This document shows, piece after piece, positions 1-61,737 of a stretch of DNA of 64,000 nucleotides. Within the stretch, counting starts at the first letter, position 1, and each line of letters starts with the position of its first letter. Origin of the DNA: Schmidtea polychroa. Its lineage: Eukaryota. The translations under genes were made by a program, and so were the position numbers. The stretch covers positions 34,782,001 to 34,846,000 of the forward strand of contig CM097887.1 of the NCBI GenBank assembly GCA_044892525.1. The letters run 5' to 3'. The notes beneath the pieces were generated by a model. The model was given only the letters and a program-made list of their open reading frames with translations. It had not been told where the DNA came from and did not search any database.

Positions 1-59
1 CGGAGGCTAACTTGACTCCTTTCCAGACACCCAATATGATTTGACAAAATGATCTCCAT

Positions 60-196
60 CATGTGTACCCATGACGACGAGTCATGTTGGTGCTGTACAC
101 ATGGGTTGGAATCTGTGAGCAGGTAAGCCACTGTGATAGGACTACTCCTCACAGTATTCGCCGTTCGGGTTCGTGAATGCCGTTAGAAGGACTTAC
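60..196 (-). ncRNA. LTR-associated structured RNA motif, copy C1
   Basis: Minus strand reads GTAAGTCCTTCTAACGGC..AACCCG..[AATACTGTGAG/CTCACAGATT stem enclosing GAGT-hairpin-TACCTG]..[CATGTGTAC/GTACACATG stem with AGCACCAA bulge and CATGAC/GTCATG hairpin]. Homologous to six other copies in the window. Confidence 0.75.
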
Positions 197-480
197 ATCA
201 ATTCACTCTTGCCTCTGGTCCAAGTGAGGTCATTTAACATACATCTTATCTACTCGGGATTATGCAAAAATTTATAGTTATATACAGATACAGCAACAAA
301 AGGAGATATTAGACGCATGAGTATATTGAACACAGTACAAAGTTTCACATAGACATTTAAACTTATTAGCTCAATCAGCATTGGCCTCATCAAAATTTCA
401 GTTCAACTACGATCAATGACGAATTTTTGGGGAGATTTCGAGAAGGGATTTGTCTTTTACTCGCACTGTGATTCCGTGAT

Positions 481-1168
481 CTACATTTCACATTCAACTA
501 ACATAGCTGCAATGTCTGACTCTAAAGTTGGGTCTGGTACATGCATCGAACTGTCGACTGGGATGGTCCTGTATTGTGGAGTGGCAAGTAGGACTGGAGC
601 AGGTTGTGAAGGAACTTGGCTAACTGCTGTGACGGTGAACAACGTCGCTTACAAGGCCGATATCTCGTAACGGCGTTTCTTTGTCTTTTCGGCTCAGGTT
701 AGACGCTTCTTTTTCTGTGGATTCGACTGGGCTGCGATGGTAGAGATATTCTCTGGAACAGCAGGTGATTTCGAGACGCTAGCGAGAGTCGACTGTAAAT
801 ATGACATATGGTATTACAGCGTCATCGATTTGATGGTGAATTGGGAATACATTCCCTTTATACTCGCTAATCCGACGCTTCAGCTCCGCCTCGGAGTAGA
901 TTTGGTGCAAGGCCTCCGACTGAGCCTTGATTTTGAGACGTTGACATCGGCTTTCTTCGAGCAAGCTGTATCGGTAGTGCTCAAGCCGTAGGATCTTTTT
1001 ATTAGCGTCTTTCATAAGTGGTGGGGCAAACCACTTGCCCTCCAGCGTGTCGATACACTTTATGAGAACTCCAACATATTCGTTCAACTTTTGTAGGCTG
1101 TCATTTTTATCGGCACACGAGAAACACGGTCTCGGGCCGGTCGGTGGGAGATTCGGTTCTGACATCAA
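481..1168 (-). pseudogene. LTR-borne novel ORF family, copy A (frameshift plus 2 stops)
   Basis: MSEP..RPCFSCADKN..LEGKWFAPPLMK..LRLEHYRYSLLEESR..GNVFPIHH. Continues in a shifted frame as NPQKKKRLT*AEKTKKRRYEISAL*..DIAAMLVECEM*. TTTGTTTAG acceptor 3 nt before the ATG at 1165. Confidence 0.8.
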
Positions 1169-1752
1169 CTAAACAAATGCAGTTTGGTCATAAAATTCAC
1201 ATCAAAATAGTTAAAATAAATTGACGATCACTCAATCTCTGCAAGATCTCGCATACTATTCTTATACATTTATTCATTATTAATTTAGAGTAGTTATGTC
1301 TAATTTTTCATTACATCGGCGGGAGTGAGACTTCATCAAAGTTACATGGCTACTTACCCTTTTCCTGGTAATGGAAAAATAAATAATAATGTGCAATTAA
1401 CTATTTATGAAATTTTATGCTAGTGAGTTGTATTGATTCGTAAGGTTAGATTAAAATCGTTTGTATATCTGTTTTGTAGATACCCTCGGATTCTCTCTCT
1501 CCTACCACTTTATCTTGAGTCAATGAATATTATGCCCGATAAATGAAGATTGAATTTTTCTGAGGGTAGGAACCTGCGAGGCCCCCTGTTAAACTCCTTG
1601 CGTGCGGATCGCAGATGGTGCGCAAATTAATACTACAAACTGTGTTTCACTCGACATCCACTCAATGATTTATTCACATTACCTCCATAATTTTTAAATT
1701 AGCCACTGATATAATTTTCACATTAATTATTATTTATGGTTGAAAATGAGTA

Positions 1753-2656
1753 TGTTGGGAATTATTTGACTAAATAAACAAAATCACTGATATTTACTAA
1801 TAACGACGGAAATGTTTCTAGTAGGTGAAGTCGGCGAACCAAATTACAATTTTACCCTCACTGGTAACATTTATGCCCTACATGTGGACGTTTTTTAATT
1901 TAAGCTCTCGACATTGAACAGCCGAAATGGTAACAATTCATTCAACTTTACAATTAAAGAGACATCCTCTTTATATTGAACGGAAATCTCGACGATGATC
2001 GTCGATGATAATTAATAAGACGGACGTGCCATCAAGTGAATATTATGGCACGAACACGACGATACACCCAGTTGGTTATGCCGGCGGTGACGAAAGTTTC
2101 ACTGATCTACGGAAGTTTAGTTTTCAGATAATTCACAGCGACTATTCCAAATCTCAACTACGTTCAATTCTTAAGTGATCTTAATGTTTACATTAGTTGC
2201 GAAGATTTGATTTTTTTCTGCCCTTTTCTCAGGTTTCCTTATTTCTTTTATTTTTAAATTTATTAAATAATTAAATTAATCTTATTTTCTCCTTCTTTTA
2301 TCGGATAATGTTGGTTATTCTGTTCGTTATTTTATATTTTATTATTTTTTCTCAATTATTTTTTTTGACTTATTTTATTATTAATATTTTAATTTTTCGG
2401 TATTCCCTTTTTGCATTTATTGTTTTTAGCTGTTTTGCTTTACTTATAATTTTGTGAGTTTTTGTTTAAGAATTAATTGCTGTCTCTTTATTTTGTTGAT
2501 TTTATTTCTTATTTTGTTTTAATTATTTGTTTTTTTCCTTTCCTATTCCTTATTTACCTTAATATTTGACTGATTACCTCAATTTATTATTATATCTAAG
2601 TTTTTACTTCGTTATTTTACAAGGTAATTTGGGTTTTCCCGGTTCTTAGCCCAACA
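1753..2656 (-). mobile_element. LTR-like unit (TGTTGGG...CCCAACA)
   Basis: 7-bp terminal inverted repeats, A-rich U3-like first half and TATAAA near 1970 on the minus strand. The start TGTTGGGCTAAGAACC matches the units at 9127 and 55798. Flanks AGTA/GTAG do not give a clean TSD. Confidence 0.65.
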
Positions 2657-3267: not shown

Positions 3268-3562
3268 AACATCCGATTTCGCATCGAAAGATTTTGATTT
3301 AGTAATGAAATTGCTCGGGAATATGAGGGCGAACCAGAATGCGGCCGTCATGACGGTCCACAAGCTTTGAACGCGAATCGAGAAACTTAAGGCCCAATGC
3401 CTGGAAATGGAGCATTCCTGGTTTGAACCGACAGATTTGAAGAAGCACATATTAATCAGGAACCAGATCGATAAAATATCATTTAAATTTTTAGGCCGTG
3501 TCTCAAATCTCATTATACGTCAGTATAAATTGTTGTCGCGCTACCACAAAGAATTTCTATGA
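3268..3562 (+). pseudogene. Divergent relative of the LTR ORF family (fragment H)
   Basis: Translation ANQNAAVMTVHKL*TRIEKLKAQCLEMEHSWFEPTDLKK aligns to DKNAAVKQLQSEVEALKK..LEGxWFxPTQMK. No CxxC. Confidence 0.5.
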
Positions 3563-3730: not shown

Positions 3731-4743
3731 TCAGTTGTCATCTCGCCTACCAGCGAGATACGCGTGTGGATCGATAAATGCGGACTGATTATAGCCAAGC
3801 CCGACCCCCCGTGACGTGTGCGTGTGGCTGCGTGCCGACTGGTAATCTGCATCCAACCGATTAAACAACACAGTTTGCTCATTCTCCTTTTTTGAGAGAT
3901 CAATCGTGCTTTGCGTATTTGGTTCATCATGGATTCCCATTAATTTCCGGAATTTCGCCGCCTTTTTGTCATCACCTCGACTGGCAATGACAGAAGAAGC
4001 ATTCCAGGCTTCGATATTTAGTTTCTACACAAAATTTCTAAAAACCTTCGATATTAAACCATTCACCTTGGAATCATCTTTTTTGGACCACAATAATTTC
4101 CGCTTCTGATCAATTTCAGTATGTTTAGTGGAATTTACGGTTGCAGAATTAAGATAACTAGGAAACTTAACTCCACTAGTCTCATCAATTGCTTTGCTAT
4201 TATCATCATTATGTCTATTTACTCTACTAACCAAATCATTAATATTTTTTAACCAAATCAAACAAACTTAGGAGATGAATCTTTATATTTTTTCTTGCGA
4301 TCATCTCGATGAGATTTTTTCAGTGAACGATCAAATTTAGGCGATCGAGACCTTCCTTTGCTAGAATGTTTTCTTTTATCAGAACTCAGGGAATCACGAC
4401 GTTTCTTGTGAGATCCTGAACTTTTATATCTTTTACAATGATCTTTACTTCGGCTTCTTCTAGATCTAATATTTTTCTAATAACTTAACAATGAGAAAAT
4501 CAACAAATTACTTGGAATTGTGATGATCTCTTGACTGTGATCTTTTAGATTTGTGATGTTTAGGCTTTTTATGACTTGAGCTGCGCCTGTGCTTTGATCG
4601 GGTCACTTCGGAATGACTCTTTACATTTTTGTGAGTATCAATAGACGAATCCGTATCAGAGGCCGAATTCTTTCGAAAATTCAAAATTAATTAAATAAGG
4701 TTAAAATGAAAAATAATACAATATAATATACCATAACTTGCAT
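3731..4743 (-). CDS. RSRC2: Arginine/serine-rich coiled-coil protein 2 (RS region plus small acidic protein domain), multi-exon
   Basis: Spliced translation gives an RS-rich N-terminus, then KRKLLWSKK..KFRKLMGI..FNRLDADYQSARSHTHTSRGVGLGY, matching the RSRC2 C-terminus. In-frame GT-AG introns of about 41-60 nt. Start codon uncertain (4743 or 4734). Confidence 0.85.
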
Positions 4744-6024
4744 TATAAATCTTACCGTTTACCCAAATTTCATCATCACAGAACTTCCACAAATCCAACC
4801 TCTTTTGTATGGAACTTGTAGTTTTGTAAGACTGGATACTTTTAGTAATTAAAATTTGTCAGATTTTTTATAACTAATTTTTATTCAAAAACATTTATTT
4901 AGTAAACAATTATTTTATAATTATATATAAAAATTAATTAATTATTCAAATGATATAGTTTATTAAATATATGTAATACTTACATTAATAATAGGTGATT
5001 TCGAAAAGACAACTGGTTTCAAATCGGGACTAACAAGATTCTACAATTGAATATAAAATTTTATTACAATTTTAAATTACTAACATTTCTATCCATATTT
5101 GTTGATTAATAGTTAAAATTTAAACAACATAATAAATAAGGCAATCGTTAAATTTTATCGTTCATAGTAATATAACATAACAACGTATATATAATAAACA
5201 AAAATAACTCTTGTAATAAAAATATATTTATATTTTTCCAATTATAATAAGAAAATTTCAATTTTATAAGTTATTTTGAACTCTTAACTGAATTTCTATA
5301 AATCTAACTTATATATATTAAATTGTTACGGCAAATGAAAATGATGTCAATTTTAAAAATGAAAAATTAACAATTATTTGAGGGAGCAACATTATTACAT
5401 TGAAAGTTAAAAGGTTCTTGTGAACTTCTTATTTCAAGAATTTCTACGATTAAAAAATATCAATCACAATTCAAGATTAGTTCTTATATAATTTGTATAA
5501 GTCATCTCTCACGATGATTGAGTTTGATCCTCCCATGTACAATTGTTGAAAATAATAATGTAAGGTCGACACCCGAAATATTGCAAATGTTTTAATGCAG
5601 CAACAAAAAATAAGCACAGATCAGCATTAAGCTAAATCAAACCAACTCGAAGTTGCTGGGTTGATGGTTTACACGAGGACTAATAAAACCATTTGTGTTG
5701 TCTCTAACCCGATTTAACATTGTTCTATCCCTTGAAATCCATAGCGATATGACGTTAGTGATGTGCTAAATAGATGAATACTCATAAAGGAGAGTTTCCT
5801 AATTTTCTCGCCATTTCAATAATTCAACAGAGAATGTAAATCATTTATTAATTACATTTTTAATTACACTCATAACTATGGAATAAGTTTACTAGAATTA
5901 TGTTGGAGCGCCACTATGTCGACACAAGTTTTAACACCTGTCTAAATGATGAAGGTTAATTACCCAATTTACAAATACCGATTCTCGAACCTTAGTTTTA
6001 CCCCACACGATTGTTCACTCGATA

Positions 6025-6144
6025 TGGCACCCGTGATTCACATCATGTTGGTACTGTGCAATGGCGGCGAAACATGGTGAAGCAGGTGAGCCCTTGCCTC
6101 AGGACTTCGACTTACCCCTATTGATAGCCGATAGAAGGACTTAC
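6025..6144 (-). ncRNA. Structured RNA motif copy C2 (partly deleted)
   Basis: GTAAGTCCTTCTATCGGC, AGTCCT-GAGGCA-AGGGCT hairpin, CACCTG, AGTACCAACATG. Confidence 0.7.
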
Positions 6145-6370
6145 GTCTCGTCTCATTTAATTAAACTTTATAGAAAACCACTTTTCTTATTTCCTACTTT
6201 ACCATGATTTATTTTGACTGTCAGAATGTGTTACACTAGGAAGTTGACGGAAAACAAATAACAGCAAGAACATTGATTTATATACATTTGAAGGCGAGTT
6301 CAGTTAATTAGAACAAACAATTGCGACAGAAAACAGATAATAAAATAACAGCACAGATCCTTCTCATAGG

Positions 6371-7179
6371 TCAAAATGTTCCAATCACATGAATAGAGGC
6401 TGATTGTCTATAAAGCGTCTGCTGTGGCTTCTGCGAAAAGTTCGTCTTGATCGAAGGACTCAGCTGCATTTTCATCCCAGGGCGTATTCGTTGGAGGTAT
6501 GACACGAAACTGAAGAGATGGCGCGATGGGCTTGGATGTAAAAGCTTAAATGTAAAAGCTTGGATGGCTGCCTGAGCACTGTTGGCCATTAGCTTACCAT
6601 CCCTCTTGGCCTGTAGAACCTTCTTCTTTTTATTTCGCTCTGCACGAGTCAGCTGTCGTCTTTTCGGCTTACTCGGTTGCACTAGAAGAGTAGTTACGCC
6701 AGGTGGTGAGATAGGCTAAGGTACTATTTGACTAGTGCCGGTGATGTAGACGTTGGAGGTCGCAGGAGAGAGAAGAGATTCCACACAACCCTTACTTGAT
6801 TTTCCAGATGGCTGTCGAGCGAAATCCTGGGGATAATGATGAATCGGAAAGACGTTATCAGCTTTCGCGATTGGTATATTAACTATCTTCTTGGTGACGG
6901 TCGCCTGCACGTAGACCTTGTGCAGTGCCCCGGTTTGCTCTTTTATCAATAATCTCTGCGTCCTACTTTCCTCTACCAGGCGTAGCGACAATGCTTGCTT
7001 CTAGCTAGTTTCTTTTGGACTTCCTTCATTTGTGTAGGAGCGAACCACATCCCTTCTAACTGATCGATTTTTCGTTTTAACAGGCCTATCTGATCCTGTA
7101 AGATTTTGATGATTGCATTTTTATCGGCGCACGAATAACATGGCTTGAGGGTCGATGTTGTGGATGGATTTCCGCACAT
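6371..7179 (-). pseudogene. LTR-borne novel ORF family, copy B (frameshifted)
   Basis: KPCYSCADKN..LEGMWFAPTQMK, then VEESRTQRLLIKEQ..DNVFPIHH, then KPKRRQLTRAERNKKKK, across three frames. TTTTTCTGAAG acceptor 3 nt before the ATG. Confidence 0.8.
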
Positions 7180-7661
7180 TTTCTTCAGAAAAATAAGAAT
7201 GTATATGAAAACTACACACTACAAACAGACGACTAGAAAACGCCGTCGAAATTTGTTTTCAGAGTTCAGTGGATTGTTGCTTAGGATTTACCTTGTTGTA
7301 TTGATATGGGTGATTGCGATTAACGCACATGTTTTGTTATCTATCCTAATTATTTTGCTTTTTAGTGTTGACATTGAGACCAGGTGGTAGTTCGTTATTG
7401 GTTATCTCTGCTTATTTTATCAGTATCAACGATTTTCATATACCTCGCTGATTAACCATGTGTTTAAGTTTAAATATTCTCACGTGGTTTCGATATTTTA
7501 GGCGACTTTCTTCTGTTCTTCTCTTTTATTTAATTACGATAACGAATAAGATTGATTACTGAAATTTTCTCCAATTCTCAACCCAACAATTATTTAAAGT
7601 ATCTAAGTGTTTTCTTAACCACAGACGTCCATCATAATCATACGCGTTAGCTCATTCCTTT

Positions 7662-7895
7662 TGTTGGCGCTTAGGGAATGTGTTATTAAAATTCTCTAAG
7701 GTTGCTGTTAAATATATCGTTGATTCTTTGCTAAATGCCTTTTTGACTATTAAACTTTTTCAATCTGTGTACTCATGGGAGCGATCATGTTGATAATGTA
7801 CAAAGCGGTTGAAAATCAATGAATAGGTGAGTCCCACTGCTGGAACTACTCCTCGTTGCATTTTCGAGTTCATAACTGCCGATAGAAGGTCTTAC
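7662..7895 (-). ncRNA. Structured RNA motif copy C3 plus LTR 3' end
   Basis: GTAAGACCTTCTATCGGC, AGTTCCA-GCAG-TGGGACT hairpin, CACCTA. Ends AAGCGCCAACA at 7662, 234 nt after the donor. Confidence 0.7.
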
Positions 7896-8042: not shown

Positions 8043-9127
8043 TGTTGGCGTTTACGGGAACAACGAAGAAAACAGAAAATTTAGGTGTTAGTAAATGTGT
8101 CTAGAGAAATTGGAAACTCCCGTAAAACGTCAAATGATTGATTTAAACCGACTAGGTACCCATGGGTTCGACCATGTTGTTAATGTACGGAGTCGTTGAG
8201 AACTAAAAACCAGGTGAGCCTCCATGTTAAGACTACTCTCTGTTAGACTTTCTGAGCGGGTTCTAGACTGTAGATAGAAGGACTTACCTCGACGATCATC
8301 AATCTGAAATCAAGGTCGTTATGCGTTCCTGGATCGTTGTTTTCGTGAGCTAGAGTGAGTTTCTGATACCAGAATCAGCGCAGCGCATGTGTTAGGTCTA
8401 TTACTCATGTAAACTACAACAACAAACAAAAATAAAAAAATTAATAACGAGACAAATGAGGAACATATGTTAGGGTTACGTCCCTGAAAAACCAACAACA
8501 AATACAAAAAACAAAAATGTTAGAACTGCCACATTCGGAGCAAGCGTCAGAGAGCTTTCTGCTCTGCGTCGGCCAGTAGCTGGTCTAGGTCGAACACATC
8601 GTCCGAACCTAGGGACCAAGAGAAATCCGTGCTGAAAGTCTGCATATCGATCATTTTTATTGTTGTTATTTTCATTTTAGATTTCAATCAATCTGATAGG
8701 TATATTTCATTTTTTGTTTTAATTCTTTGATTTTATTTTAAATTTATTTATTTTTCTTTTCCATCTGACTGGTTGAATAATCGCCATCTGATATCTTTCT
8801 TATCCCATGGTAAGATGATACTTTTTGCTATTTTTGTGTCTTTTTTCGGCGATTTGTGTTATTCTTGTGCCTTTAAATTATGTTTCGTGTGCAAATACTT
8901 GCTTTTTATCGACTTTATTACTTTTGTTTTAATTATTTTTATTCATGTATTATTTATTTTTGTTGTTCTTGGTGTTATTTTTGATTTTGAATATTTTTGG
9001 TGCATTTTATTTGTCGTGTGGGGTCATCTCAGCTGACTATTTACCTTCAATTATTTACTAAATGAAAATTTTAAGAAAAGTAGGAAAAGAAAGAACAGAT
9101 ATTGTTGTTTCTGGGCTTAGCCCAACA
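8043..9127 (-). mobile_element. Internally deleted copy (F) of the ORF-bearing LTR element, with ORF C-terminus (8548-8654) and RNA motif C4 (8150-8287)
   Basis: TGTTGG...CCCAACA termini, flanks TTCA/TTCT (3 of 4 match). VFDLDQLLADAEQKAL* matches the copy E tail FVLEQLLQEAEADAF. Motif stems GACTCCGTAC/GTACCTAGTC and AGTCTT/GAGGCT. Confidence 0.7.
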
Positions 9128-28900: not shown

Positions 28901-31900
28901 GAATCGAAAAAATCAAACAATGAAATACGAAAAGGTCATTCATAATTAAAAAGTACAAAGCGAATAATGGAAAACATAAACAAAATTGAAATTGAATTTC
29001 CATATCTCGACGGCTTGTTCGAGATAAAGAGAAGTGATCACCAGGGAAGCTGGGAGATGAAGCATTTTTTTCCAACTATTTGCAATCTTTCATGTTTCTT
29101 TGTTTTCCTTTCGGTAAGTACTTCAAATTCCTGCTCATAAAGATATGAACTCTTGCTTTTATTTTCATATTCGATATTTAGATTTTGAAATTTCTTTTTT
29201 CCTTATCGACTATTGTTTCTCATATAGTTAAGATTTTTCTCTTTCTAATTTAAAATGGATGGTTTCGTTCTTAATGAATGAATTATTTAATCATTAACTT
29301 CATTAAAACCGAGGTTTAGAAAACAGTAAATAAAGATTTTCAATGACTTTGTAATAGGGTGCCAATGAAATACATGGCAAAAATTTAAGTGTAATATTTT
29401 TCAGGTCTTACCCCCTAATTTTGTTCCTATTGATATGGTAATCAACTGGTATTTTTTTCTTCAACATTCAATTATATTTAGAGGTTGCTCACTGGCATCA
29501 TAGTCCAACATATTGTACGTTATGGGTTTATTCCTAATAAAATACAACATTGAGTTGAATGAGTTTACTTACTTATTAGTGTGAGTCATTGCAATTATAT
29601 ATTCTTTGGAGATTGTTGTTGTCTGCATTTTTATTGGATTTTAAATTTTGTTCTTTATTGCGTGTGTGACTTGTGACTTTCTTATTTAATGCAAAGCTAA
29701 CTCTGGGTAAGTGTATTGTTTCATAACACTTAATTTATGAATATTTAATTGGTGCAATAGACTGATTTGTTGGAAATTGGCCAGTGGGCCTGTCAGTGTC
29801 TAGTTGTCTAGTCCTGCTACTTATTTTTTGTTGTTGTTGCAATGCAAGTATAACGTTGCTTATTATAATAGATCTGAGCTACTGACTACTGACTGACTTG
29901 CGGCTTGTTTTATATTTTTCTGTGCATATACTTGCAGATATCCTGGTTCAATGGCAGCTGTGTGTATAAGTAAAGGCAAAGATCGAGGCATCTGGTTGAT
30001 TGGTGGAACATTGAGTGAACTAACAGGCAGCAAACTACCATCAAATCGTCAAGTACTTGCAAGATTTTTCCACTTTCATTTGAATGAAAAGCTGACTATT
30101 CAGGACAGTGCTGTATCAACAACAAGAGAACTATTACAATTTTGGATGAAAGCCAGAATACCAACCCGACAGGACTATAATATTGTTGCCAAGTTGAAGG
30201 ATTTGCATGCAAAATGGCAAGCGCTTAAGAAAAATACGGCAAGGATGTCCAAAGTGCAAAAGAGTAAAGAGGATGCATTTTCGGAAAGTTTGGATGATTT
30301 ATTCGATGTTGCACATGCAAATGCAATGAAACTCATCAAAATTGAAGAGGACAAGAAATTCTTGGAAGCACAGCGAGAAAAGGGCAGACGGGGATGCATG
30401 GGTGCAGTAGACACAAAGCTTACGAAGCAGGAGGAAAGACGCCGGCAGCGAGAACTTTTAGAGGAGCAAAGAAAGGTCAGAGAAGAGCAGAGACAGTGCG
30501 ATGCTTCAGTCGTAAGAAGTTTGGGTGAAAGCAGTGAAAGTGAAGATGACAGCAGTAGTCTAACAGTGTCGGATCCCAGTATGTCTATGCCAGCGCAAAA
30601 ACGTCACATTCCAATGAACATACTTACTCCAGAGCTGGCATCTGCACTTGATCGGACGAAAGTAAGTGACAGAAATGCCACGTACATTTTGGCTGCCGCT
30701 GCCAAGTCACTTGGCCACAATCCCAGTGAGCTAACTTTAAACAAAGAGTCAACCAGACTAGCTCGAAGGCAACATCGTGCAGACATTGCTGCTGAAGTGC
30801 GAAACAGTTTTTCACCCGATACGCCATTGACAGTTCACTGGGATGGCAAGCTGCTTCCCGAGTTGACAGGAAAAGAGACTGTGGATAGACTTGCAATAAT
30901 TGTGTCTGGGGATGGCGTAATGAAACTGTTGGCTGTTCCCAAGTTATCAAGTGGAACTGGTGAAGCTCAGGCTACAGCAGTGCATGAAGTGTTACTGGAC
31001 TGGAATTTAACCGATCGAATTATTGGCATGTCATTTGACACCACAGCAAGCCACTCCGGAAATAAAGCTGGCGCATGCGTTTTGTTGGAAAACAAGTTGA
31101 AGAAACAGCTGTTGAGTTTGGCATGCAGGCACCACATTCATGAACTTATTGTCGCTAAAGTCTTTGAAACAGTGATTGAAAAGGCATCAAGTGGTCCACA
31201 GATCAAATTGTTCCAGAGATTCTCAGCAGCATGGAGAACAATCAACAGACAAGCGTTTGAAAGTGGTATCGGTGATGATCAACTTGCCATTGAACTAAAT
31301 CCAATCAAAGAAGAAATGCTTGTCTTTCTGAAGCAGCAGCTTCTGACATTCCAGCCAAGAGACGACTATAAGGAGTTACTTCAGTTGAGCATTTTGTTTC
31401 TTGGTGATGCGTCTGATAATGTCACTGTGCATGCACCAGGAGCCTATCACAGAGCCAGGTGGATGGCCAAACTTATATACTGTCTCAAAATTTACTTGTA
31501 CCGTTCACAGTTTCATCTTACACCTCGAGAACTTTCAGGACTTCGACAAATGAATGTTTTCGTCATCACCATCTACCTGAAGGTGTGGTTTACTTGTCCA
31601 TCGGCACCTTCAGCTCCGCAACATGACTTGGAATTGTTGCAGCAACTGGTCCAGTACAAAACAAGAAATGAAGTAGTTGCCAATGCAGCACTCATTACCT
31701 TTCTTCGCCATCTGTGGTACCTCGGTGAAACCCTGATCGGTTTGGCTTTCTTTGATGACGAAGTGCCGGTCGAGAGTAAAGAGCTAATGGTTGCCGCACT
31801 ATCGCGTGAAGGTGAAGATGAGCCATGCAAACGTATACAACTGGATGAGAAGGACATTTCTACAAAGAAACTCTCAGATTTCGTCACAACCAATACCAGG

Positions 31901-35369: not shown

Positions 35370-37156
35370 TCATGGCGTCAATGTCACTGGAAGTCGGGGG
35401 ACCTCGAGCAACCTTGTCTGTCCCGCTGGAACGGGGCGATATATTTTTTCTGTTGGCGGCGCCTGTTTCTGCGAAATCTCCTTGATTGAGGTTTGAGCGG
35501 CAGATAAGGGGCCATCCATATATTATGTACGCAAAAAAACCACGAATTTTGACACCCCCCTCCCCCTGTTGCATCTCGTACATTTTCACCCCCCCCCCCC
35601 AATGCGTACGTTGCTCGGCGGTCCCAACCCGTGTATTAAAATGCATTAAATATAAACATTTAAAACAATTTCTTTTTAATATAAAATGTATAATATACAG
35701 ATAAACCCATTTAGTTGTTACTGTAATGGTTGTAGATGCGTCTTACGTATGTAATAATTATGTGAGTCAATTAAAAACTATAAAACACGACTAATTACCA
35801 ATCTAATCATAATTGTTCATAGAAGTGTATACACAAAGATATCCTATAACCTAAACTGAATATAATTTAATACAATGAATAACATAAACTAAAAATTGCG
35901 CATTGCAGTTTATCCCTTTAACCATCCTCCGTTTCTAATCCAGTTTGCAACCACTCGAATAAATTCTGAATGACTGGCATCGCGCTGTTCTGCATTTCAC
36001 TGACAAATGGCATCAGAACCACATCATCATCAGCTTCGATTTTACGGAGCAAGAAGATTGATATACTTTTTGATTGGTTAGTTTTTAATAATACGTAAAT
36101 GGCACATCAAGAACATATTGGTATTATTAAAAACTAAAACTATTAAATCAAAAAACATCTCAATCTTTTAAAATTAAATTAGTACCAATAGTAAATAAAT
36201 TCGCATCAATGTTGAATAAAATAGGAAATCACTAAATTTCAAATAATATTGCATTTATACAAGCCTTGCTCTCGACTATATTAAAATATTAAGACTGTAA
36301 TATTGAGAATTCCATGCGTAGCAGTGACAGTATACATGTCGCCTAAGGTCATGTGATAATGCACAGCCCATGCGGTAACCTATTATATATAAAGGTTTCA
36401 TATGGGAGTATTATAACAAATCATTTTATTTTATTCCTTCGCATGCCTTTGTTGGAACACCCTCCTGCATACGCACCCGTACGCAAAACATTCACTCGGA
36501 ACACACACCCCCCTCCCCCCTCGGTGCGTACGTAATATATGAATGGCCCCTAACGAAGCTTCCAATGCCGCGATGGTGTCTCGGCTCTTCTGGTTTTTCT
36601 CCGCTCGTGAAGGGCGTTTACGTTTCTTCGGGGCCGAAATGGTTGCTGAAGCAGATTGGAGAGTCGATGGCGTTGAAGGCACGCTCGGAACTACAGCTGG
36701 CTGGAGGTTCGATGTCTTGGCTGTTCCCGACAAAATCGGCTCGTTGATGGGTGGTAACTGAAATCCATGGCCTGCACAACTAGTCGACAGTCATGACCCA
36801 CTGTCGCTCTGATGGTGATTTGGGAACACGTTGGTTCCATCCTGAATTGGGTATTCTCGTACCGTCTTTGAAATCTAGGCTTCAGTGTAAACCTTGTGAA
36901 GCGCCTCCGATTGGGCCTTGATTGTCAGCCGCTGACACCGGTTTTCTTCTAATAGACTGTCTCGGCAGTGCTCCAATCTCAAGATTTTCGTCTTTTCTTC
37001 TTTCATCTGTGGTGGGGAGAACCACGTGCATTCGTATGTTTCTATACGTTTTTTGATGGCCCCTATGTAAGTATGGAGTTTCCGAATATCTTCATTTTTG
37101 TCCGAGCAAGAAAAGCACGGTCGGAGTTCGTTGTTCGACGAGCTGGGTTCACACAT
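35370..37156 (-). pseudogene. LTR-borne novel ORF family, copy C (split by a MITE)
   Basis: MCEP..RPCFSCSDKN..WFSPPQMK..LRLEHCRDSLLEENR and APKKRKRPSRAEKNQKSR..ALEASL|SAAQTSIKE. The frame is restored by removing 35508-36550 plus one TAA. TTCTTTATAG acceptor 2 nt before the ATG. Confidence 0.8.
35508..36550. mobile_element. TAA-TSD MITE (Zator/Harbinger-like)
   Basis: TIRs GGGGCCAT(C/T)CATATATTA(T/C)GTACGCA, exact TAA TSD. Confidence 0.85.
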
Positions 37157-39411
37157 ATCTATAAAGAAGAAAATTTTCGTCATAGTCTGGAAATAGTTAT
37201 TTGGATATCCTAATGAAGTCAGATGGATTTATAAAAATGTCTCGTTAAATTTCGGTTTTACTCGAAGGAGAAGTTATATATATCTTAATGAACTACCATA
37301 TAGAGAAATCACGCAAGACCACCGCCGCTTTGGCCGGTTTCAGTCGATGAGGTACATTGCTCAGAAAAACAGGTTTAAATTGAAATCTCAAGTCAAAAAA
37401 CTTTGTTGGGAAACAAACAAAATGTACATGTAAAGCATACACACCATATATAAACAAACATTAAATATTAATAATCGGTGTAGTTTCTCTATTCCCTCTA
37501 CTAATTTAGTCGGGTTCATCATACATTCGAGCAGCGAAATGATAGCTTAGAATATAATACATCATACGTAAAGTTTGTCCTAATGACGGGAATAACCGGG
37601 AAGGACTTGATCGAAAACGAAAAACGCATTTACCAAATTAAATTAATTCGTTTCCCTGGCACCTCGGTAGTTTTTCCCAATTAATTCACTCAGGATTGTC
37701 GAAATATCAATGTAATTATAACCTGATCCTCTTACATAATTAAATTAACAGTCAATATCGAGGTGTTATTGATGAGACGATGCAATGCCTTAGCATCAAT
37801 ATTCGCAATGCGTGTAGTTATGTTGGTTTCGCTATTTGTATGATGATGTGATTTTTCTTTACATCAGTGCCCGCAATGCATCTAGCTATGTTTATTTTTG
37901 TCATTACAATTGCAACTATGAGTTTTGATCTACCCACCTGACGCTCAATCTCGGATTTATCTGTCGGGTAATGAATTGTTCTCATTGACAGCTATACTGA
38001 TCATTTCCTATTAGAGAGTGGTGTCTTTTCATCTGCTGCATTTTTCCACTGTGATTATTTATCAGTTTCTAATCATGATAAAATCGCTAAATGCCAAAAC
38101 ATGACAAAGATAACTAACAGAGAGTGTGTGTAAGAGGCATCGTTGAAGACAGGCAATGACGGCTTATCTTATCTTGGACAGTAAATATTTATGATTTGCT
38201 TACTATGAAATTAGATTTTTTAGACCGACAAGACAATATCCACGGAGAATGTCTGGATTGATCGGGCGAATTCTCCATCGATTAAACAAAAATTATCAGG
38301 TTCGGGAAATTCCCGTTGACTTTGCCCTATCAAGATAAATCGATTTGCTGGAACAAAGTAGGTAGACGCTACTTTTATACATGACGAATGTAAAGGCGAT
38401 CCTCTTTTACAGGACTATTGAGGCGAAAGGTGGTCTGCTGATGATACTATGAAGACACGACTACGGATTGCCTGACGATGGCGAGTAGAGAAGGCGAAGC
38501 TTCGCTCCGGGCGATTAACGATAGTTGAACTTGATGGAATTATGATTATCAGTTTGGAATTTCATCTAAATCTCTAACTCGATCACACCTAAATAAAGAC
38601 CTCTGGATTTTCATCTCACTCTCATTAGTCCGACTCGGAGTTTCTCCACTCCCCACGACACACCCGAGAACCGTAGACATTGCTACCCACCGTCCTCGCA
38701 TCATCATGAGGGACAGATCGACTCAAATGAATATGATAAAAATGGAAATATCATTTAAAATTGTAATTCATATCACGAATGATCAATCAACACAATTAAG
38801 TATAAATAATTTACCTGGCGACTATGCCATTTGGATTTTCAATCATGATACCTTCGGCCAACTTCCCATCCATCCATCAAAACATCACATAATTACTTCA
38901 TATTCAAGTTCGGCGAGAGTTCTGACTACTTTTACATTCGATAACCTCCAACACCACCCAATCATCGTTTTCATACTCTCGGTTGATAAAAATTTCCCGC
39001 AACAGTGTGTTAGTCATTCATTCCATGTTTCTGTTCTTCATTGGATCTTTTCCGTGTCTTCAAAATAATGTTTGGCATTCCTCGGCATCATGATCGAACT
39101 CCCAGATAGCACCGTCGCCAGTCCCGTAAAGAAGAAAGAAGTCCTCATTATTTAAAAATAAAAATTTATTTAATTGAATCTTCAAATATCTACTACATGT
39201 CTTCGTTATATCAATTAAATCTATCATGACAAACAATTTCAAACCATACCTATAATCTCGAAATTGAATTAGTAAAGCTGAATCGGCAATGAGCTATTTC
39301 GCAATATCTCCTTAACAGTTCGGATTTCCCAAAAAACAAATCTTTTCTTTGCAATCGATTCTGATGAACAGGTAGTGATGGTTATTTCTTCCTAGTCGAG
39401 TGAGTCTATAG

Positions 39412-40646: not shown

Positions 40647-40950
40647 ATGAAGTTAAGGGAAAATATGCAGCAAGACCGGGAACGAGCCCAGGATGCAGAA
40701 GCGCCTGAAACTGATCCAGCAGCTACAGCTTAGGAGCGCCCAGGATCAGATGGAACTACGAGCTCTCCGCCTGAGGACTAGAGAACTGGAAGCGCAGTTG
40801 CATCATCAAGAGATAGAAAAGGACGCGATCGCCCGAATCCGGCCTATGGCGGAACTCGTAATTCCACCCAGTGGTTCGGTATCGTCTGCGCCCCTCAAGA
40901 AGAAGAACTGTCTTGGTAAGGCGACACAAGCCAGACAACGACAGGCATAA
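40647..40950 (+). pseudogene. Possible distant relative of the LTR ORF family (G)
   Basis: CCTAATTTTAG acceptor 2 nt before an ATG. After a frameshift: ELRALRLRTRELEAQLHH and APLKKKNCLGKA. No CxxC or WFxP motif. Confidence 0.35.
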
Positions 40951-43924: not shown

Positions 43925-44693
43925 ATGGCTTAACCAAATGCGAAAACCTCCAATCTGCGACCTTGTTTCTCTTGTGCGAACAAGAATGCGTCAATGCTCA
44001 CACTGCAAACCAAAATTGGCCATTTGAAGAAACGAATCGATCCCATGTAGGGGACATGGTTCACCCCCGTCCAGATGAAACAAAAAAATAAGAAAAAACT
44101 TCCGTCTCGAACACTACAAAGATAGCCCATTAGAAGAGAATCGCTCACAGCGTATCCTCATTCGAGAATGATGTAGAATTCTCCACCAAATGTACACCAA
44201 CTCAGAACTCAGGAATCGTATCGCAGAATGTCATGCTGCATATCAAGTGAACACCTTTCTCGTCACCATTTGACTGAAGGTTCAAGTTCACCAAAACGAT
44301 CCACATGTCGAGGACATGGGAACAGTAAAGTTGCGTTGCCTGTTCCAGAGGTGATCTACGTTGGTACTAATGTGGCCCAGTTGCCACCGCGGCGCCTGTC
44401 ATGGACACGGCTCTATCCATCGCAACTGAAAACCCGAAACGCAAATCCTGCACTCGGGCGGAACGGACGCAGCGTCAGCGCGAAAAATAGGCAGAGTCGG
44501 AAGATACTCTAGCTGCCACCCATGCCAAAGAAGCCACCCAGATACCAGCCACACTAGAAACTTCAAAACGCCCGTCGTATAGAATAATATCCGCCTCCGG
44601 TACACAAGACAAACAGATTTTGTCCTCGAACAGCTGTTGCAGGAAGCCGAAGCGGATGCGTTTTGGGAGTCATCTACCCCAAACCCAACCTAA
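43925..44693 (+). pseudogene. LTR-borne novel ORF family, copy E
   Basis: LRPCFSCANKN..WFTPVQMK..LRLEHYKDSPLEENR..NPKRKSCTRAERTQRQREK..FVLEQLLQEAEADAF, with several stops and frameshifts. GATTTAG acceptor 2 nt before the ATG. Confidence 0.8.
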
Positions 44694-44933
44694 CGGTCTC
44701 ATTTCTTCTTCGACTCTGTTCGCCTGTAATATGCGTTAACTCTGTCGATATTCTGTAATAATTATAATATATATTTGTTCCGAAAATTTGCACTTGAATG
44801 TGTTTGGTTACATCCTCTTTGAATGCGGTTAGAAATGAAGAATAACTGATGGTTGTAATTTGGTCGCGCGGTAAATCTTGATTCACGTTCTCCAACCAGT
44901 ACCAGTTGGACGATAATAGTTCTGATTAGAAAG

Positions 44934-45174
44934 GTAACACCTTCTATCGGCACTCTGGAACCTGTGTAGTTGTAACGCAGCAGCTAACCTGATCTATAGT
45001 TTTCGCCAACTTGGGGCATTACCAATATTGACTACTTTCGTATGATTTAAGAATCATGTGGGTGTTTCGAATGGTTGATTTTGAAAGACTAAGTATGATG
45101 ATAAAAGAATAAGATGACAGATGCATTCTAGACTACCTGAATGATGTGTGTCAACCTGAAGGGAAACCCCAACA
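44934..45174 (+). ncRNA. Structured RNA motif copy C9 plus LTR 3' end
   Basis: GTAACACCTTCTATCGGC, AGTTGT-AACGCA-GCAGCT hairpin, AACCTG, ATTACCAA. Ends CCCCAACA at 45174. Confidence 0.7.
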
Positions 45175-55797: not shown

Positions 55798-57847
55798 TGT
55801 TGGGCTAGAACCGAGAATCGAGAGCTTGTTTTAATGGGTCGGAAATGCATGGCGTGAGAATCGCGCCGGGTTAAATTAAAACACCAATCAATACAAATTA
55901 AAGTACATAACACATTGATGATAAATAAGACCCGGTTGATAAAATAAAGGAACGAAATAAAAGATCGCAATCACTAACACAATTAGGAGAAACATCACAT
56001 TCGGAATAGCTAACAACTAAGAAATAAAATAATAATAAATAAAATAATGGGTAATAAATTAATTAATAATATGAAAAATTTCTAAATTTAAAATAAATCA
56101 TCTAGTAAACTGGTAAAATAATAAAAAGTAGAATAAAAGTAGTAAAATTAGATAAACCATAAAATTTATAAAACTAAATTGTTTAATGAAAACTAAAAAT
56201 AAAACCAACAAAATTATTTAAATTATAAAACTTATAAAACCAAATTGTTTAAATCAATGAAACTAAAGTAACTTATAACTTATTTAAATTAATCTATAAT
56301 TAATCTATAAATTAATCTATAATCTATAAATTAATCTATAACTTATTTAAATTATAAAACTTGTAAAACTAAATTAAAATTAGCAAAAACTATTTAAATT
56401 ATAGAATTTATAAAAATAAATCTTAAAAATTAAAAAAAATTAGAATTTTGATTAATTAAATTAATTAAATTAAAAAATAAGCAATTACACACATTCATGC
56501 ATGCATGCAAAAATTAATCAGAATTGCCTCGCATTCTAATTGAATATAACAACAGAGAATGCGTAGGCGTATAATTCAATCAGTATAAATACTGAGTAAA
56601 ATTTCATTTTTAAAAAAAAATGGAGAAGTCACGCTCAACTGGTTAACTGAAAATCGCTACAGTAGACAATGCAAATCCCGTGGCTCTCGATTGTCAGTTT
56701 TATGCATGCATGGTGAGGTAAATTTGATTTTTGTTAATTTTATGTTAATGATTTATATGTTAATTTTATGTTAAAATTTATATGAAATAATATGTAATTT
56801 TTAGGATTTAGTAATTGAATTTGTTTGGCTGATTTTGTGTCTGTTCATTTTAATTTTAACTTGGAATAATATTTTAATAGGAGTAAGATGAGTTTGATTT
56901 TATTAATGACAAATTTATATGATGTAATTTGTAGGATTGAATAAAATTTTTTAATTGGATTTGTTTTTAATTAATTCTGGAGTCTTGTCTATGATTTTTT
57001 TTTGATAATATGATAATGTAGGTTGGTTTTTTTATGAAATTTATGTGTCGATGGTCTGGGCTGGGGAAAGGTTTGTGGACGGGCGGCACTACGTGCTGTT
57101 GGTCGGCAGATGTTTCGCCAGTTGAGTCCATCGGGGTAGGGAATATAGTTAGGGAGATGAACGGTTAAAGGGGGTAAAATCAATTTGCGATAGTTTAGGG
57201 CCATATTTAGAGTTAGAAAGTATAGGACTTTTATTTTCATAGATATTTTTGAGTTAGGAGAAATATTAGAATAGTTATGAGCTGCTGTCGGTAGAGGAAG
57301 TAGGTTTAGGCAATTTTATAGAAACCACGGATAGTTAAGATATTCGATCGTTCAGGATTAGAAATACAGGCTCAAGTTTTCATGAGAAGTGTGGAAATAT
57401 GTTTATTAACTTGTGAATGAGGGCCAATCCCCGCTCAAATTTTTTGAAGGGTAATTTGGATATTTTAGGGAGTATATAACAACAATTATTAGATGAAAAA
57501 TAAGGGCGGATCCCTGCACAAAAATTTACAAGGGAACAATTGGAAATACACTTAATTTAGGACCACAAATGATCTAAAAACAGCATACATAGTGAATAAT
57601 GACGTAAGACCTTCTATCGGCCGTCTAGAACCCGAAGAGAAAAACAATGGGGAGTAGTTTTAGCAATAGAGCTCACCTGCTCATTGTTTTTCACCTTTGT
57701 GTACAGTACCAACATGGTCGTCGCCATGGGTACACAAATGGTTTAAATTGCAATAGTCATGGAGGTGCTTAGGAAAGAGTCGAACGATTATGATTACCCT
57801 AAACGTACTTTAAAATGGAAGATTGACACACCTCTAAGTAACCAACA
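55798..57847 (+). mobile_element. 2050-bp solo-LTR-like element with the RNA motif but no family ORF
   Basis: TGTTGGGCTAGAACC...ACCAACA, exact TSD AAAG, motif C5 donor 244 nt before the end. Confidence 0.8.
57604..57738 (+). ncRNA. Structured RNA motif copy C5 (best preserved)
   Basis: GAAAAACAATGGG/CTCATTGTTTTTC stem, AGTTTTA-GCAA-TAGAGCT hairpin, TTTGTGTAC/GTACACAAA stem with AGTACCAA bulge and CATGG/CCATG hairpin. Confidence 0.8.
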
Positions 57848-58805: not shown

Positions 58806-59161
58806 ATATCTGTAGTATTTTAAAATTACTAATTTTAGAGAAGACATTTTTATTCTATATAAATACTGGTAAAAATTCATTAGCAGGGGAGAATAAAAAT
58901 TATTTAACTAAAAGAAATTGACGAACTCGTCCCGCTTGCGCTTCGATCATTCTGCACGCATGAGCCGTTTCCTCTTTGAACGAGTGGTTGCATTGACAGT
59001 GGACGGCAAATTGCTGATAGGTTGCGAAACGACTAATGGTGCTGGCACTTTGGACGAACCATACTTGTTCCGATATACATCACATCTGAGGGTGGTTAGA
59101 GGAAGAGATTCCCCCTGTGACTGAGACAAAATGTTTTTGCCGCTAAGACGATAAACTGGTA

Positions 59162-60675
59162 ATTCCGTAATTTGGACTCAGAATAAATTTTTTTACAGTC
59201 AATAATTTTTTCTTAATATATATTTTGCTAAAATTGGGTTGAAATCGTAGTTAAATAACTTAAATAAACTTAACTACATAATTAAATATCCCGTTGTTTT
59301 AATATTATAAATTAAATTGCGTAATTTTGAATTAATTGTATGCATGAATTTTCGTACAGTTATATGTTATATAGTTATTTTCCATTATTTTGACTTATTG
59401 ATGAATTTATATTATAATAGACTTATATTTATTTAATATATATTTTATAGACCTTTTCAAAAGAAATCCGGTTACAAATAAATTTGGAAAGATCTAATGG
59501 AAGGTCATATGGCGAAATCTCTAAGAAATATGGTATTTCGCGTTCCACTATCCAATATATGGTTAAAAATGATGGCAGAAGTAAGAAGAAGAATGGACCT
59601 AAAGAGAAATTAAGTAAAGGAGACAAACGACGTATCCTTGCATTAGTAAATGATTCATTTACTAAAAAAGTTAAATGTTCGTCAACTGATATTAAAAAGA
59701 CTATGCAATTAAATGTATCAAAACACACAATTTGCAGGGTTTTAAAAAGTATGAATTATAATTACAAAAATGTACCATCAAAATTCAAATTATCTTATAA
59801 AATGAAACAACGAAGGTTTGAGGCAGCTAAAGAATTTCTCATTTCCGGAGTCCAATGGAATAATGTCGTTTTTTCTGACGAAAAATACTTTACTTTGGCA
59901 GGATGCGATTCGTACTATTGTTGGATAAAAGATAACCAAACACCTAGACGAATAAAAAAGGTCATAAGATCTCCGGGTATTATGCTTTGGGGCATGATTC
60001 TCCCAAATGGTCTACTCTCTTATGAATTGCTTAAAGGAAAAATAAATTCTAAGAAATATATCACATTAATAGAAGAAAAGGCAATTCCGATAATTAAATT
60101 AAATATGCCTCAACAATTTATATTCCAACAAGATAATTGTCCAATTCACGTTTCTAAGGAAGCGCATGAGTTTTTCAGTAATTCGAATACCGACATTTTA
60201 AAATGGCCACCTTACAGCCCTGATCTAAATATTATTGAAAATATTTGGCATGAGCTTTCAAGTAAAGTGTATAATGATGGACCGATAAAGAACTTAGTGG
60301 AATTACAAAGGAAAATTAAATCCGCAGTATCAATATTTAATGAAACCTCCCATCAATATGTAGGTAATTTGTATTCATCAATGCCGTCCAGATTGGTTTC
60401 AGTTATCATTAAGCGCGGGGACAGACTAAAATATTAGGAATTATTAGAATTAAACGTTTCGATAGACTAAAATATGAGAATTGGTCAGGTGTACGAATAT
60501 TTATGCTACAGTAAAATATTGATGTTTGTATTTTGTAAACATAATATATTCTTTGCATGTCCTTTATTACTGATATGATATTGTCTCATCAAACTTAATA
60601 AGTGTATAAATAAAAATTAATAATAAATTGCATTGGTTAAAATTTTAGGTGTACGAAAATTTTTGATACGGGCGG
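59162..60675 (+). mobile_element. Tc1-family DNA transposon (left end degenerate, inferred)
   Basis: Right end ..GTGTACGAAAATTTTTGATACGGGCGG-TA. Repeated GTGTACGAA direct repeat (60490, 60649) with an inverted copy near 59350. Confidence 0.75.
59484..60437 (+). CDS. Tc1 transposase, DD34E
   Basis: FSDE, QQDN and PPYSPDLNIIE with 34 residues between D and E, plus an N-terminal HTH. The open frame starts just after a TTATAG acceptor, so the true start is probably in an upstream exon. Confidence 0.92.
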   Translation: MERSNGRSYGEISKKYGISRSTIQYMVKNDGRSKKKNGPKEKLSKGDKRRILALVNDSFTKKVKCSSTDIKKTMQLNVSKHTICRVLKSMNYNYKNVPSKFKLSYKMKQRRFEAAKEFLISGVQWNNVVFSDEKYFTLAGCDSYYCWIKDNQTPRRIKKVIRSPGIMLWGMILPNGLLSYELLKGKINSKKYITLIEEKAIPIIKLNMPQQFIFQQDNCPIHVSKEAHEFFSNSNTDILKWPPYSPDLNIIENIWHELSSKVYNDGPIKNLVELQRKIKSAVSIFNETSHQYVGNLYSSMPSRLVSVIIKRGDRLKY

Positions 60676-61737
60676 TAGATGCGATTTAAGGCCTCAGATT
60701 GAGATTTGATGGTGAGCCTCAGGTTGCGATTCTCTTTTAGAAGGCTGTCCCTACAGTGTTCCAACCTTAAGATTTTTCGATTCGTCTCCTTCATTTGTGG
60801 TGGGGTGACCCAGGTTCCTTCCAAGAGCTCGATGAGTTTCTTTAAGGCCTCAACTTCCGACTGTAACTGTTTTACAGCTGCGTTTTTATCTGCGCATGAG
60901 AAGCACGGACTGAGTCACGATCTCGGCAGCGTTGGTTCTGCCATTTCTACAACGAAGGTGTTTAAGGACAGTTATTTCAACTTTCGGAGGGTTAGTCCGT
61001 TGAAAAATATTCCATTATCATCATTCAAATTACCCAACCATCTAAAGAAGTGGGAAAGGGAAAGAAAACAAAAAAACCCCGGGAACTAGTTGTCCCCACT
61101 ACTCATGCAATCACAATATATTGTACCGAATATATATAAGTTATATATAGGCTAATTGAATTTACACTTTAATTGCGAGATATAGACACGCAACCTTATT
61201 TTCCTCAATCTTGTCGAGTTGCTCTCAGATTTATTTTTAATTAAACTATCCGCGTAGATTATATCAGGTTGGTGTGTAAATCTATCAGTCGATTTATACG
61301 CGATTTCCTCGACTATGTCTCCACGGCACATTTGTTTATGTATTATTGTTATTACCAAATGTCACTCTGATGTAATCACTATGATTATTAACGGAAAATC
61401 CCTAAATGGTGGTAATAAACACTTAAAACTAGCAGATCGTCAATCAAGTAAGCATAGATCGAATTCCTAATGCGGTGCTGATAAACAATTACGGAGTGTC
61501 TGACTTTGATCTGTCAGATGGTTATCATGGGCCATTAGTGGAAAATGGCGCTCGTCTTATGGTCGATTCACGTATATGTATAACTATGATTTGTTGGAAA
61601 TTCGTGGGCTTTACACGCTTGTCACTGTTCGATGAGAGATTTCAGCCTAGTAATGTGTATTCGGATTTGGAATTTATTTTGCTGTATTCAACCTACTGAA
61701 AGACGGATTTATTGGCCTAAGCGAGTTAATAAGCGAG

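Follow-up and report, generated by a model that had tools for sequence, protein, structure and literature searches.

We analyzed a stretch of 64,000 nucleotides (nt) of the Schmidtea polychroa genome (GenBank assembly GCA_044892525.1, contig CM097887.1, forward-strand positions 34,782,001 to 34,846,000; hereafter the window). It holds a unit, copy B, which an earlier note had proposed as a terminal-repeat-bounded cassette coupling a spliced gene to a conserved structured RNA. Copy B itself is a dead solo long terminal repeat (LTR), and the interest lies in its family. The members of this family are the LTRs of Burro-type giant Gypsy retrotransposons. They contain an open reading frame (ORF) that is under strong purifying selection, and their RNA is a real covarying structure. 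Across LTR families, the ORF and the RNA are loosely coupled.

Copy B and its closest relatives

The termini (TGTTGG...CCCAACA) and the exact ATTA target-site duplication (TSD) described in the earlier note are present at 5901 and 7588. The order acceptor, ORF, donor, RNA, and LTR end was borne out on the minus strand, the ORF surviving only as a broken remnant. Its frame opens with an ATG at 7179, changes near 6985 and again in the 3' part, and runs into a stop near 6716. The predicted 3' splice site reads AAG in B versus YAG in intact copies, and stem A of the RNA is damaged, with around 20 nt of one arm gone.

The closest sister of B is L047, a unit of 3,997 bp with its own TSD and 80% identity. 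Sister copies reach around 2 kb further 5' than B. Positions 1-128 of B align to 1536-1672 of L047 and positions 109-296 to 3776-3965; B skips from around 128 to around 2,240 of this sister, with around 2 kb gone at about 7461-7480. The deleted region is that of the promoter, the first exon(s), and the first donors. Hence, it is this internal jump that leaves B without a promoter, and a search of B for CCAAT and TATA boxes found none. The 1,688 bp of B are not the natural size of the unit: whole LTRs measure 3.66-4.24 kb and start with TGTTGGGCT. BLASTN with B revealed no further copy in the window, where nhmmer and tblastn brought up another four copies of the ORF and several of the RNA. In the 781-Mb assembly, B had at least 54 matches, counted among the 40 of 1,104 candidates that were scored.

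The five distances from donor to LTR end given in the earlier note are correct: 244 nt in B, 234 nt at 7895 (-), 245 nt at 8287 (-), 244 nt at 57604 (+), and 241 nt from 44934 to 45174. Two of its distances from stop to donor also hold, 285 nt (copy 1144-196) and 241 nt (copy 43945-45174). The 227 nt given for B start from a stop other than that of the family, whose C-terminal motif ends at 6408, 264 nt 5' of the donor, and the fourth value (261 nt) could not be tied to any unit with ORF and RNA.

Burro-type giant Gypsy elements

Paired copies flank a primer-binding site (PBS) and gag-env-pol genes, and the reading of the unit as a retroelement LTR is thus the one that held. The LTRs of L050 and L049 form such a pair, with 99.6% identity over 3,558 nt and a common TSD (TATG). 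The 5' copy of this pair is split by a 27-kb insertion beginning with a non-LTR retrotransposon (L050:1-3700, with zinc-finger and reverse transcriptase), which sits mid-way in the LTR RNA. The LTRs of a second pair are 24,982 bp apart, and between them are the PBS, a RING ORF, gag, a fusion-glycoprotein domain, protease (PR), reverse transcriptase (RT), RNase H (RH), integrase (IN), and ankyrin repeats. The domains were read in around 9.5 kb of one interior, where Pfam matched Retrotrans_gag, RVP, RVT_1, RT_RNaseH, Integrase_H2C2, and rve (order gag, PR, RT, RH, IN). Monjiviricetes_fusion (E 3e-28) comes after gag and before PR and shares its frame with RVP and RVT_1, and Ank_2 lies 3' of the integrase. 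Burro (GYPSM1) elements are giant Gypsy-like LTR retrotransposons of planarians (PMC6431247), and the class is known (PMC6431247; also the accessible parts of PMC8532177 and PMC13465017). Ours resemble them in the period of 25-30 kb, in having gag, an env-like fusion domain, PR-RT-RH-IN, and ankyrin repeats, and in the RING-finger accessory ORF 5' of gag. Burro cargo also includes MATH, BCL2, BIR, and dUTPase. At the level of the element, the claim of an undescribed system therefore fails, since the architecture is that of known Burro retrotransposons.

The PBS is an 18-nt site located 7 nt past the LTR and complementary to a tRNA-type 3' end, which we take to be that of tRNA-Pro. A T-loop motif precedes its complement at 2,384 sites, among them those of a long 475-bp tandem array at G000:C1:130.90-130.95 Mb. 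The LTR end followed by the PBS occurs at 646 sites genome-wide (reversed-pattern control: 0). The polypurine tract was sought at a single junction (L049), where the sequence before the 3' LTR is not purine-rich. A tally of TSDs in 17 rows gave a perfect 4-bp duplication in 13 (11 distinct units); the remaining four include one 3' LTR and one interrupted copy, as well as L030 and L044. The elements have periods of 25-26 kb and 30 kb, and the interior of the B family is around 21 kb. An insertion made L054 unusable as a complete LTR, and L056 was uninformative because it lies in a transposon insertion.

Some further observations concern these elements. Tandem LTR-interior-LTR arrays were found at G000:C4:46.24-46.29 Mb and on C158, with periods of 26,181 and 20,500 bp. 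Two accessory ORFs without Pfam match lie directly 5' of the 3' LTR in L049 (7488-8834, -), one for a coiled-coil protein of around 240 amino acids (aa) and one for a protein of around 190 aa that seems to have a signal peptide and a transmembrane helix. A hairpin of mir-753, a planarian microRNA family, scores above gathering within the L047 LTR (L002:843-904), apparently in an insertion.

The LTR gene and its product

Naturally intact ORFs of 236-263 aa (around 250 aa) are found in the LTRs of several subfamilies. Among the 150 best-scoring of 7,006 candidates, 128 have no internal stop (a set biased by the choice of best scores), and several of the 150 are LTR pairs 20-26 kb apart. To assess selection, we used the Nei-Gojobori method on 11 natural copies (55 pairs, with the synonymous rate, dS, saturated in 46). 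For the N-terminal part, the ratio of nonsynonymous to synonymous rates (dN/dS) is 0.04-0.08 in eight unsaturated between-subfamily pairs and 0.24 in a single close pair. Unsaturated between-subfamily pairs that belong to the L049 group have a proportion of nonsynonymous differences (pN) of 0.075-0.10, versus 0.57-0.72 for synonymous ones (pS). The C-terminal dN/dS, where measurable, is 0.08-0.60. The ORF is thus a real selected gene, as had been proposed, and by Pfam it is neither a gag nor a host fragment.

The three intact LTR proteins submitted to Pfam matched no family (best E 0.016), Foldseek against PDB gave 0 matches at E<=0.001, and a word-seeded search of 5.8 billion proteins of near length gave 1,359 candidates, none at E<=0.001. 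The best match in ESM Atlas (0.82) is unnamed and only a lead. A profile search of 1.84 billion representatives identified 16 proteins at E<=0.001. The ten that were looked up are unnamed singletons. Most of the 16 carry unrelated host domains as fusions and are probably mis-predicted gene models from a related genome. A PDB sequence search with a chimeric homologue was discarded, having returned its host ABC part only. These outside homologues keep a TWxxP turn, in many of them the basic helix is strong, with as many as 12 Arg among 18 residues, and some carry a PPPY motif. One of 13 proteins scanned matches Pfam REV, below the threshold (E 0.0013, 19.1 bits, cut-off 22).

The AlphaFold model (mean pLDDT 62) has helices at residues 13-41 and 46-93 with a turn between them, then disorder, a basic helix at 177-194, and short C-terminal helices. 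Residues 8-115 were modelled as a parallel homodimer with both CxxC cysteines in the interface (score 0.54 versus 0.00 for the best control; the runs agreed in no fewer than 79% of contacts, and the partner pLDDT was 77 or higher). Of solved eukaryotic pairs, 17 of 29 reach the mark for this score, and of single chains none of 30. The model supports a parallel coiled-coil dimer. The basic helix is present in nine of nine local proteins. Seven of the eight full-length local proteins, and several outside homologues, have a clear acidic-aromatic patch at the C-terminus. A pattern resembling a nuclear export signal (NES) follows the basic helix in four of the eight and is not conserved. The C-terminus looks more like an activation motif than an export signal. 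In the young 30-kb family described below, the LTR has a second gene (L041:1229-1639, +) of around 120 aa, with an acceptor 5' of its ATG and AATAAA after it. It has no Pfam match, and we presume its C-terminal motif to be AT-hook-like.

The structured RNA

The covariation set was drawn from 37 donor-anchored segments, of which 25 could be anchored on all motifs and 10 of these are non-redundant. The other 12 were left out as truncated, damaged (including B), divergent, or false hits. Watson-Crick pairing is more frequent between the arms of the same copy than between arms of different copies: 0.77 versus 0.40 in stem A and 0.81 versus 0.56 in stem B (each 0/20,000 permutations), and 0.90 versus 0.71 in the inner hairpin (1/20,000). 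The permutation ignores the relatedness among copies, and its counts are not probabilities. Three pair types are used at several stem positions. The unpaired parts that are conserved are the CCUUCU head, a 3-nt purine bulge, CUCAC, and an 8-nt loop of the AxxxCCAA type. Sense-strand folding z-scores range from -1.3 to -4.2 in eight copies and reach +0.10 in B, no better than shuffles, because of the gap in its stem A. The conserved structured RNA of the earlier note is thus supported by covariation across copies, the one in B being damaged.

The exact pattern of donor and RNA head occurs at 2,493 sites genome-wide and the head alone at 4,688 (reversed-pattern controls: 0); the two patterns are not strictly nested. 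Nothing on the RNA was found in an Rfam search with four loci (E<=5), and hence no ribozyme or riboswitch of a known family. Comparison by eye with known motifs led us to drop hammerhead, HDV-like, twister, and loop-E readings. An antisense reading, with the donor CAG/GTGAG on the other strand, was also rejected: the sense strand folds better in seven of the eight intact copies and in B. The GGGCUCA motif of the RNA (6085-6093, -) is similar to the start of the PBS in L051 and L053. CUCACCUG reads as a donor on the opposite strand and is also similar to the 5' end of U1 snRNA.

Predicted transcript signals

The predicted signals of intact LTRs begin with a reversed CCAAT box at around 335, a TATA box 28 nt on, and one to three donors within around 260 nt. 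An AATAAA, with a U-rich stretch, comes around 360-430 nt past the TATA box. A YAG acceptor with a pyrimidine tract stands no more than 13 nt from the ATG in 13 of 15 contexts. Past the stop there is a second AATAAA at 53-137 nt (in six of the eight copies extending through the C-terminal motif of the family) and a second donor at 228-301 nt. The covarying RNA ends around 60-90 nt short of the LTR end. In the interior, the RING and coiled-coil ORFs begin directly behind acceptors, and AATAAA is found past the RING ORF and past the last 3' ORF. Because internal ORFs are placed in this way, the layout suggests a single promoter serving several ORFs by alternative splicing and polyadenylation. 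Two contig sets are far deeper over the predicted promoter of L049; the libraries behind them are of unrecorded type, and the parts cannot be ranked by contig depth.

In L034, L035, L038, L039, L045, and L049, LTR positions around 6-19 are reverse-complementary (13-14 nt) to a leader site at around 550-600. This complementarity shows a compensatory change in L049 and is absent from some families; pairing between U3 and R, or end to end, is possible.

Coupling of the gene and the RNA

The earlier note held that the spacing of ORF and RNA recurs. The donor-to-end distances are indeed kept, and the coupling is loose, since some LTR families have the RNA without the LTR ORF. In the window, both occur together in only three copies. 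No RNA was found 3' of the ORF copies at 37174 (-) and 60956 (-), and no ORF hit upstream of the RNA in the window copies at 7895 (-), 8287 (-), and 2952 (+) or in two locus copies. The LTR at 55798-57847 is complete and has a promoter, donors, and the RNA, and no ORF homologue was found in it. The ORF-less 2-kb LTR family forms pairs 13-15 kb apart. In a young family with a period of around 30 kb, the 40 best copies are 99-100% identical and form 17 pairs, 16 of them spaced 29.6-30.6 kb. Its LTR carries a distant ORF homologue, the second gene, and the RNA, with no donor at the RNA head. In the RNA tree, a single origin of the ORF-bearing LTRs is neither proven nor rejected (p-AU 0.158).

Features in the window

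Coordinates are given in Table 1. Decayed weak fragments resembling the LTR gene were also found at 3329-3448 (+), 40693-40851 (+), 52101-52304 (-), and 58900-59050 (-). Among the other genes, an intact ORF of 761 aa at 29897-32182 (+), of higher GC content and without Pfam match, looks transposase-like by eye, and 59451-60437 (+) encodes an intact Tc1/mariner-type transposase of 328 aa (DDE_3, HTH). A 231-aa ORF at 53994-54689 (-) has no Pfam match and begins with MGCCNS, a possible lipid-anchor start.

Table 1. Parts of copy B and other copies of the LTR, its gene, or its RNA in the window
Feature	Position	Strand	Basis
Copy B: solo LTR of a Burro-type Gypsy element, decayed and with an internal deletion	5901..7588	-	comparison with sister copies
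TSD ATTA, left, 4 bp	5897..5900	.	exact match to right copy
TSD ATTA, right, 4 bp	7589..7592	.	exact match to left copy
B: U3 5' remnant	7461..7588	-	alignment to L047
B: pyrimidine tract and AG 3 bases 5' of ATG (predicted 3' splice site)	7183..7210	-	
B: LTR gene remnant (CxxC and coiled coil, TWFxP turn, basic helix, acidic-aromatic tail)	6408..7179	-	
B: AATAAA 3' of ORF, predicted poly(A) signal	6208..6213	-	
B: donor-like GTAAGT at head of RNA (predicted donor, 6144)	6139..6144	-	
B: conserved structured RNA with a hairpin, a stem A that has a purine bulge and a CUCAC loop, and a stem B that has an asymmetric loop of 8 nt	5990..6138	-	
B: LTR 3' end CTCCAACA; PBS 7 nt further on in 5' LTRs	5901..5908	-	
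Diverged LTR copy: ORF remnant 1144-481, donor 196, RNA; extends past window edge	1..2656	-	
Diverged, decayed LTR copy: ORF remnant, donor variant at 44934, RNA, end	43945..45174	+	
ORF remnant of interrupted LTR (LTR start 40130)	36545..37174	-	
ORF 5' fragment	60672..60956	-	
Solo LTR of ORF-less sister family, 2,050 bp, TSD AAAG; promoter, donor, then donor 57604 and RNA	55798..57847	+	
ORF-less solo LTR, 1,085 bp, donor 8287 and RNA; apparently nested in neighbouring copy	8043..9127	-	
3' end (donor, RNA, and end) of another LTR, no ORF detected	7662..7895	-	

Proposed mechanism and alternatives

The reading that we favour, at slightly short of an even chance, is one of two separable modules: an early spliced LTR gene for a nuclear trans-activator, and a clade-wide RNA signal on unspliced RNA. 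From the LTR promoter, around 390 nt in, a short leader would be spliced to the acceptor directly 5' of the LTR ORF. The mRNA would end at the AATAAA past the stop, giving a small early message from an intact 5' or solo LTR. The product would be a parallel coiled-coil dimer, with the basic helix for nuclear import and nucleic-acid contact and with an acidic-aromatic tail. It would trans-activate the element's own transcription unit, Tas- or Tat-like in logic only. The RNA would be a separate core cis-signal. As it is placed past the poly(A) site and, relative to every donor, on the side of the intron, only unspliced (genomic) read-through RNA would carry it, and it may mark that RNA for Gag packaging or priming, or for export by a host factor. 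We infer the start site, the splicing, the poly(A) use, the localization, and all the functions.

Several points weigh against these two modules. Contigs of four runs cover L049 and have no GT-AG joint among the joints listed. The poly(A) assignments are weak because in such AT-rich DNA we estimate an AATAAA by chance around every 400 nt. The homologue in the 30-kb family is without a clear acidic tail. The RNA tree joins four ORF-less with two ORF-bearing copies (94/96), which, without reaching significance (p-AU 0.158), hints at secondary loss of the ORF, the protein then being supplied in trans; a Rev-like pair would permit this. Finally, the ORF-less family may encode the LTR protein elsewhere in its interior, since only 1.7 kb past its PBS were examined (L055), where no homologue was found.

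The main alternative is a Rev/Rex-like pair, in which the dimeric protein would bind the LTR RNA via its arginine-rich helix, leading to export, stabilization, or poly(A) read-through of the unspliced 25-30 kb RNA, with supply in trans to ORF-less families. We regard it as possible and rather doubtful. It would fit the basic helix of all local proteins and the arginine-rich one of outside homologues, the modelled self-association, and the RNA stems interrupted by a purine bulge and asymmetric loops. The place of the RNA on the intron side of the donor would confine it to unspliced RNA, and full-length RNA needs an escape route past the internal acceptors and AATAAA. There is a Gypsy-class precedent in CERV of Cer1 (accessible part of PMC10309623), and the RNA tree hints at ORF loss. 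Yet the RNA is retained in LTRs without the ORF, and the young family has ORF and RNA without the donor. No consistent NES was found, and the C-terminus is more like an activation motif. The single match to REV counts in favour of such a pair, but it is sub-threshold and probably compositional, and no likeness to a PDB fold accompanies it.

It is unlikely, in our view, that the product is an accessory protein acting on the host, comparable to MMTV Sag or the IAP of Burro itself, its gene sitting in the LTR to gain expression at high copy, with the RNA as an ordinary packaging or priming leader. Burro elements do bear many host-modulating cargos (PMC6431247; accessible part of PMC13465017), some homologues have the PPPY motif, and the sag gene of mouse mammary tumour virus (MMTV) is an LTR gene (PMC12789967, in the part available). 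However, no likeness to host families was found in Pfam, PDB, or Atlas, and the basic helix and acidic tail fit a nucleic-acid regulator better. The earlier note had also considered a stand-alone mini-element mobilised by an integrase, or a chance juxtaposition. Most examined copies are solo with their own 4-bp TSD (the 11 distinct units), as a mini-element would be, but the paired copies around PBS and gag-env-pol discard the first, and the recurrence of the donor-head and LTR-end patterns, with controls at 0, the second; we consider both extremely improbable.

Relation to known systems

HIV Rev has a basic RNA-binding helix. The human immunodeficiency virus (HIV) Rev/RRE, the human T-lymphotropic virus (HTLV) Rex/RexRE, and the MMTV Rem/RmRE resemble the present case in combining a small spliced regulator (here predicted) with a structured RNA in or overlapping the LTR (RexRE), and in MMTV sag the whole ORF is within the LTR (accessible part of PMC12789967). 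The LTR protein differs from Rev and Rex by its long parallel coiled coil, acidic tail, and lack of a clear NES, and homology is limited to the sub-threshold match of the basic helix. According to our prediction the LTR gene lies 3' of the LTR promoter, unlike sag and nef, which are located in U3. Tas of foamy viruses is an accessory activator with an acidic region. The foamy virus LTR also has a donor 5' of the poly(A) signal, whose use is set by RNA structure (PMC3694450, in its accessible part). Burro-type LTRs differ in having two sets of donor and poly(A) signal with a gene between them, and no sequence relation was found.

Within the Gypsy class, CERV of Caenorhabditis elegans Cer1 is a nuclear protein that multimerises and is needed for the export of unspliced RNA (PMC10309623, accessible part). 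It has a Cys-loop M domain modelled as rings, unlike the LTR protein, and a response element is not named in the same part of that source. General searches, which included no direct comparison, brought up no likeness between the two proteins. In section 7 of PMC6431247, the account of Burro is silent on any gene or structured RNA within the LTR, and the literature searched held no account of a Burro LTR gene or of this RNA; the primary Burro papers and supplements (Grohme 2018, Lee 2026) lay outside it and may annotate LTR ORFs. Hence, the element class is known, and the LTR gene and RNA are apparently new to it, though they may have been annotated before.

Significance

Planarian genomes have been shaped to a major extent by Burro elements, one of which, Burro1, is reported to support stem cells (accessible part of PMC13465017, citing Lee 2026). 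For the intact production of an RNA of 25-30 kb full of acceptors and poly(A) signals, our analysis offers a candidate protein and an RNA of around 160 nt. With thousands of ORF-like sites (the 7,006 first-look candidates), solo LTRs need not be inert. The homologues absorbed into host gene predictions in another genome are an annotation hazard. If the pair were Rev-like, it would be a case of convergence with complex retroviruses. Giant planarian Gypsy elements would then have independently evolved a complex-retrovirus circuit contained in the LTR, with an early spliced gene for an arginine-rich dimer and an RNA response element, and hundreds of intact paired or solo LTRs would be cassettes supplying the regulator in trans, including to gene-less sister families; this we put forward as a conjecture with the balance against it. 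Under either of the two leading readings, a selected gene inside an invertebrate LTR, 3' of its promoter, is an unusual layout.

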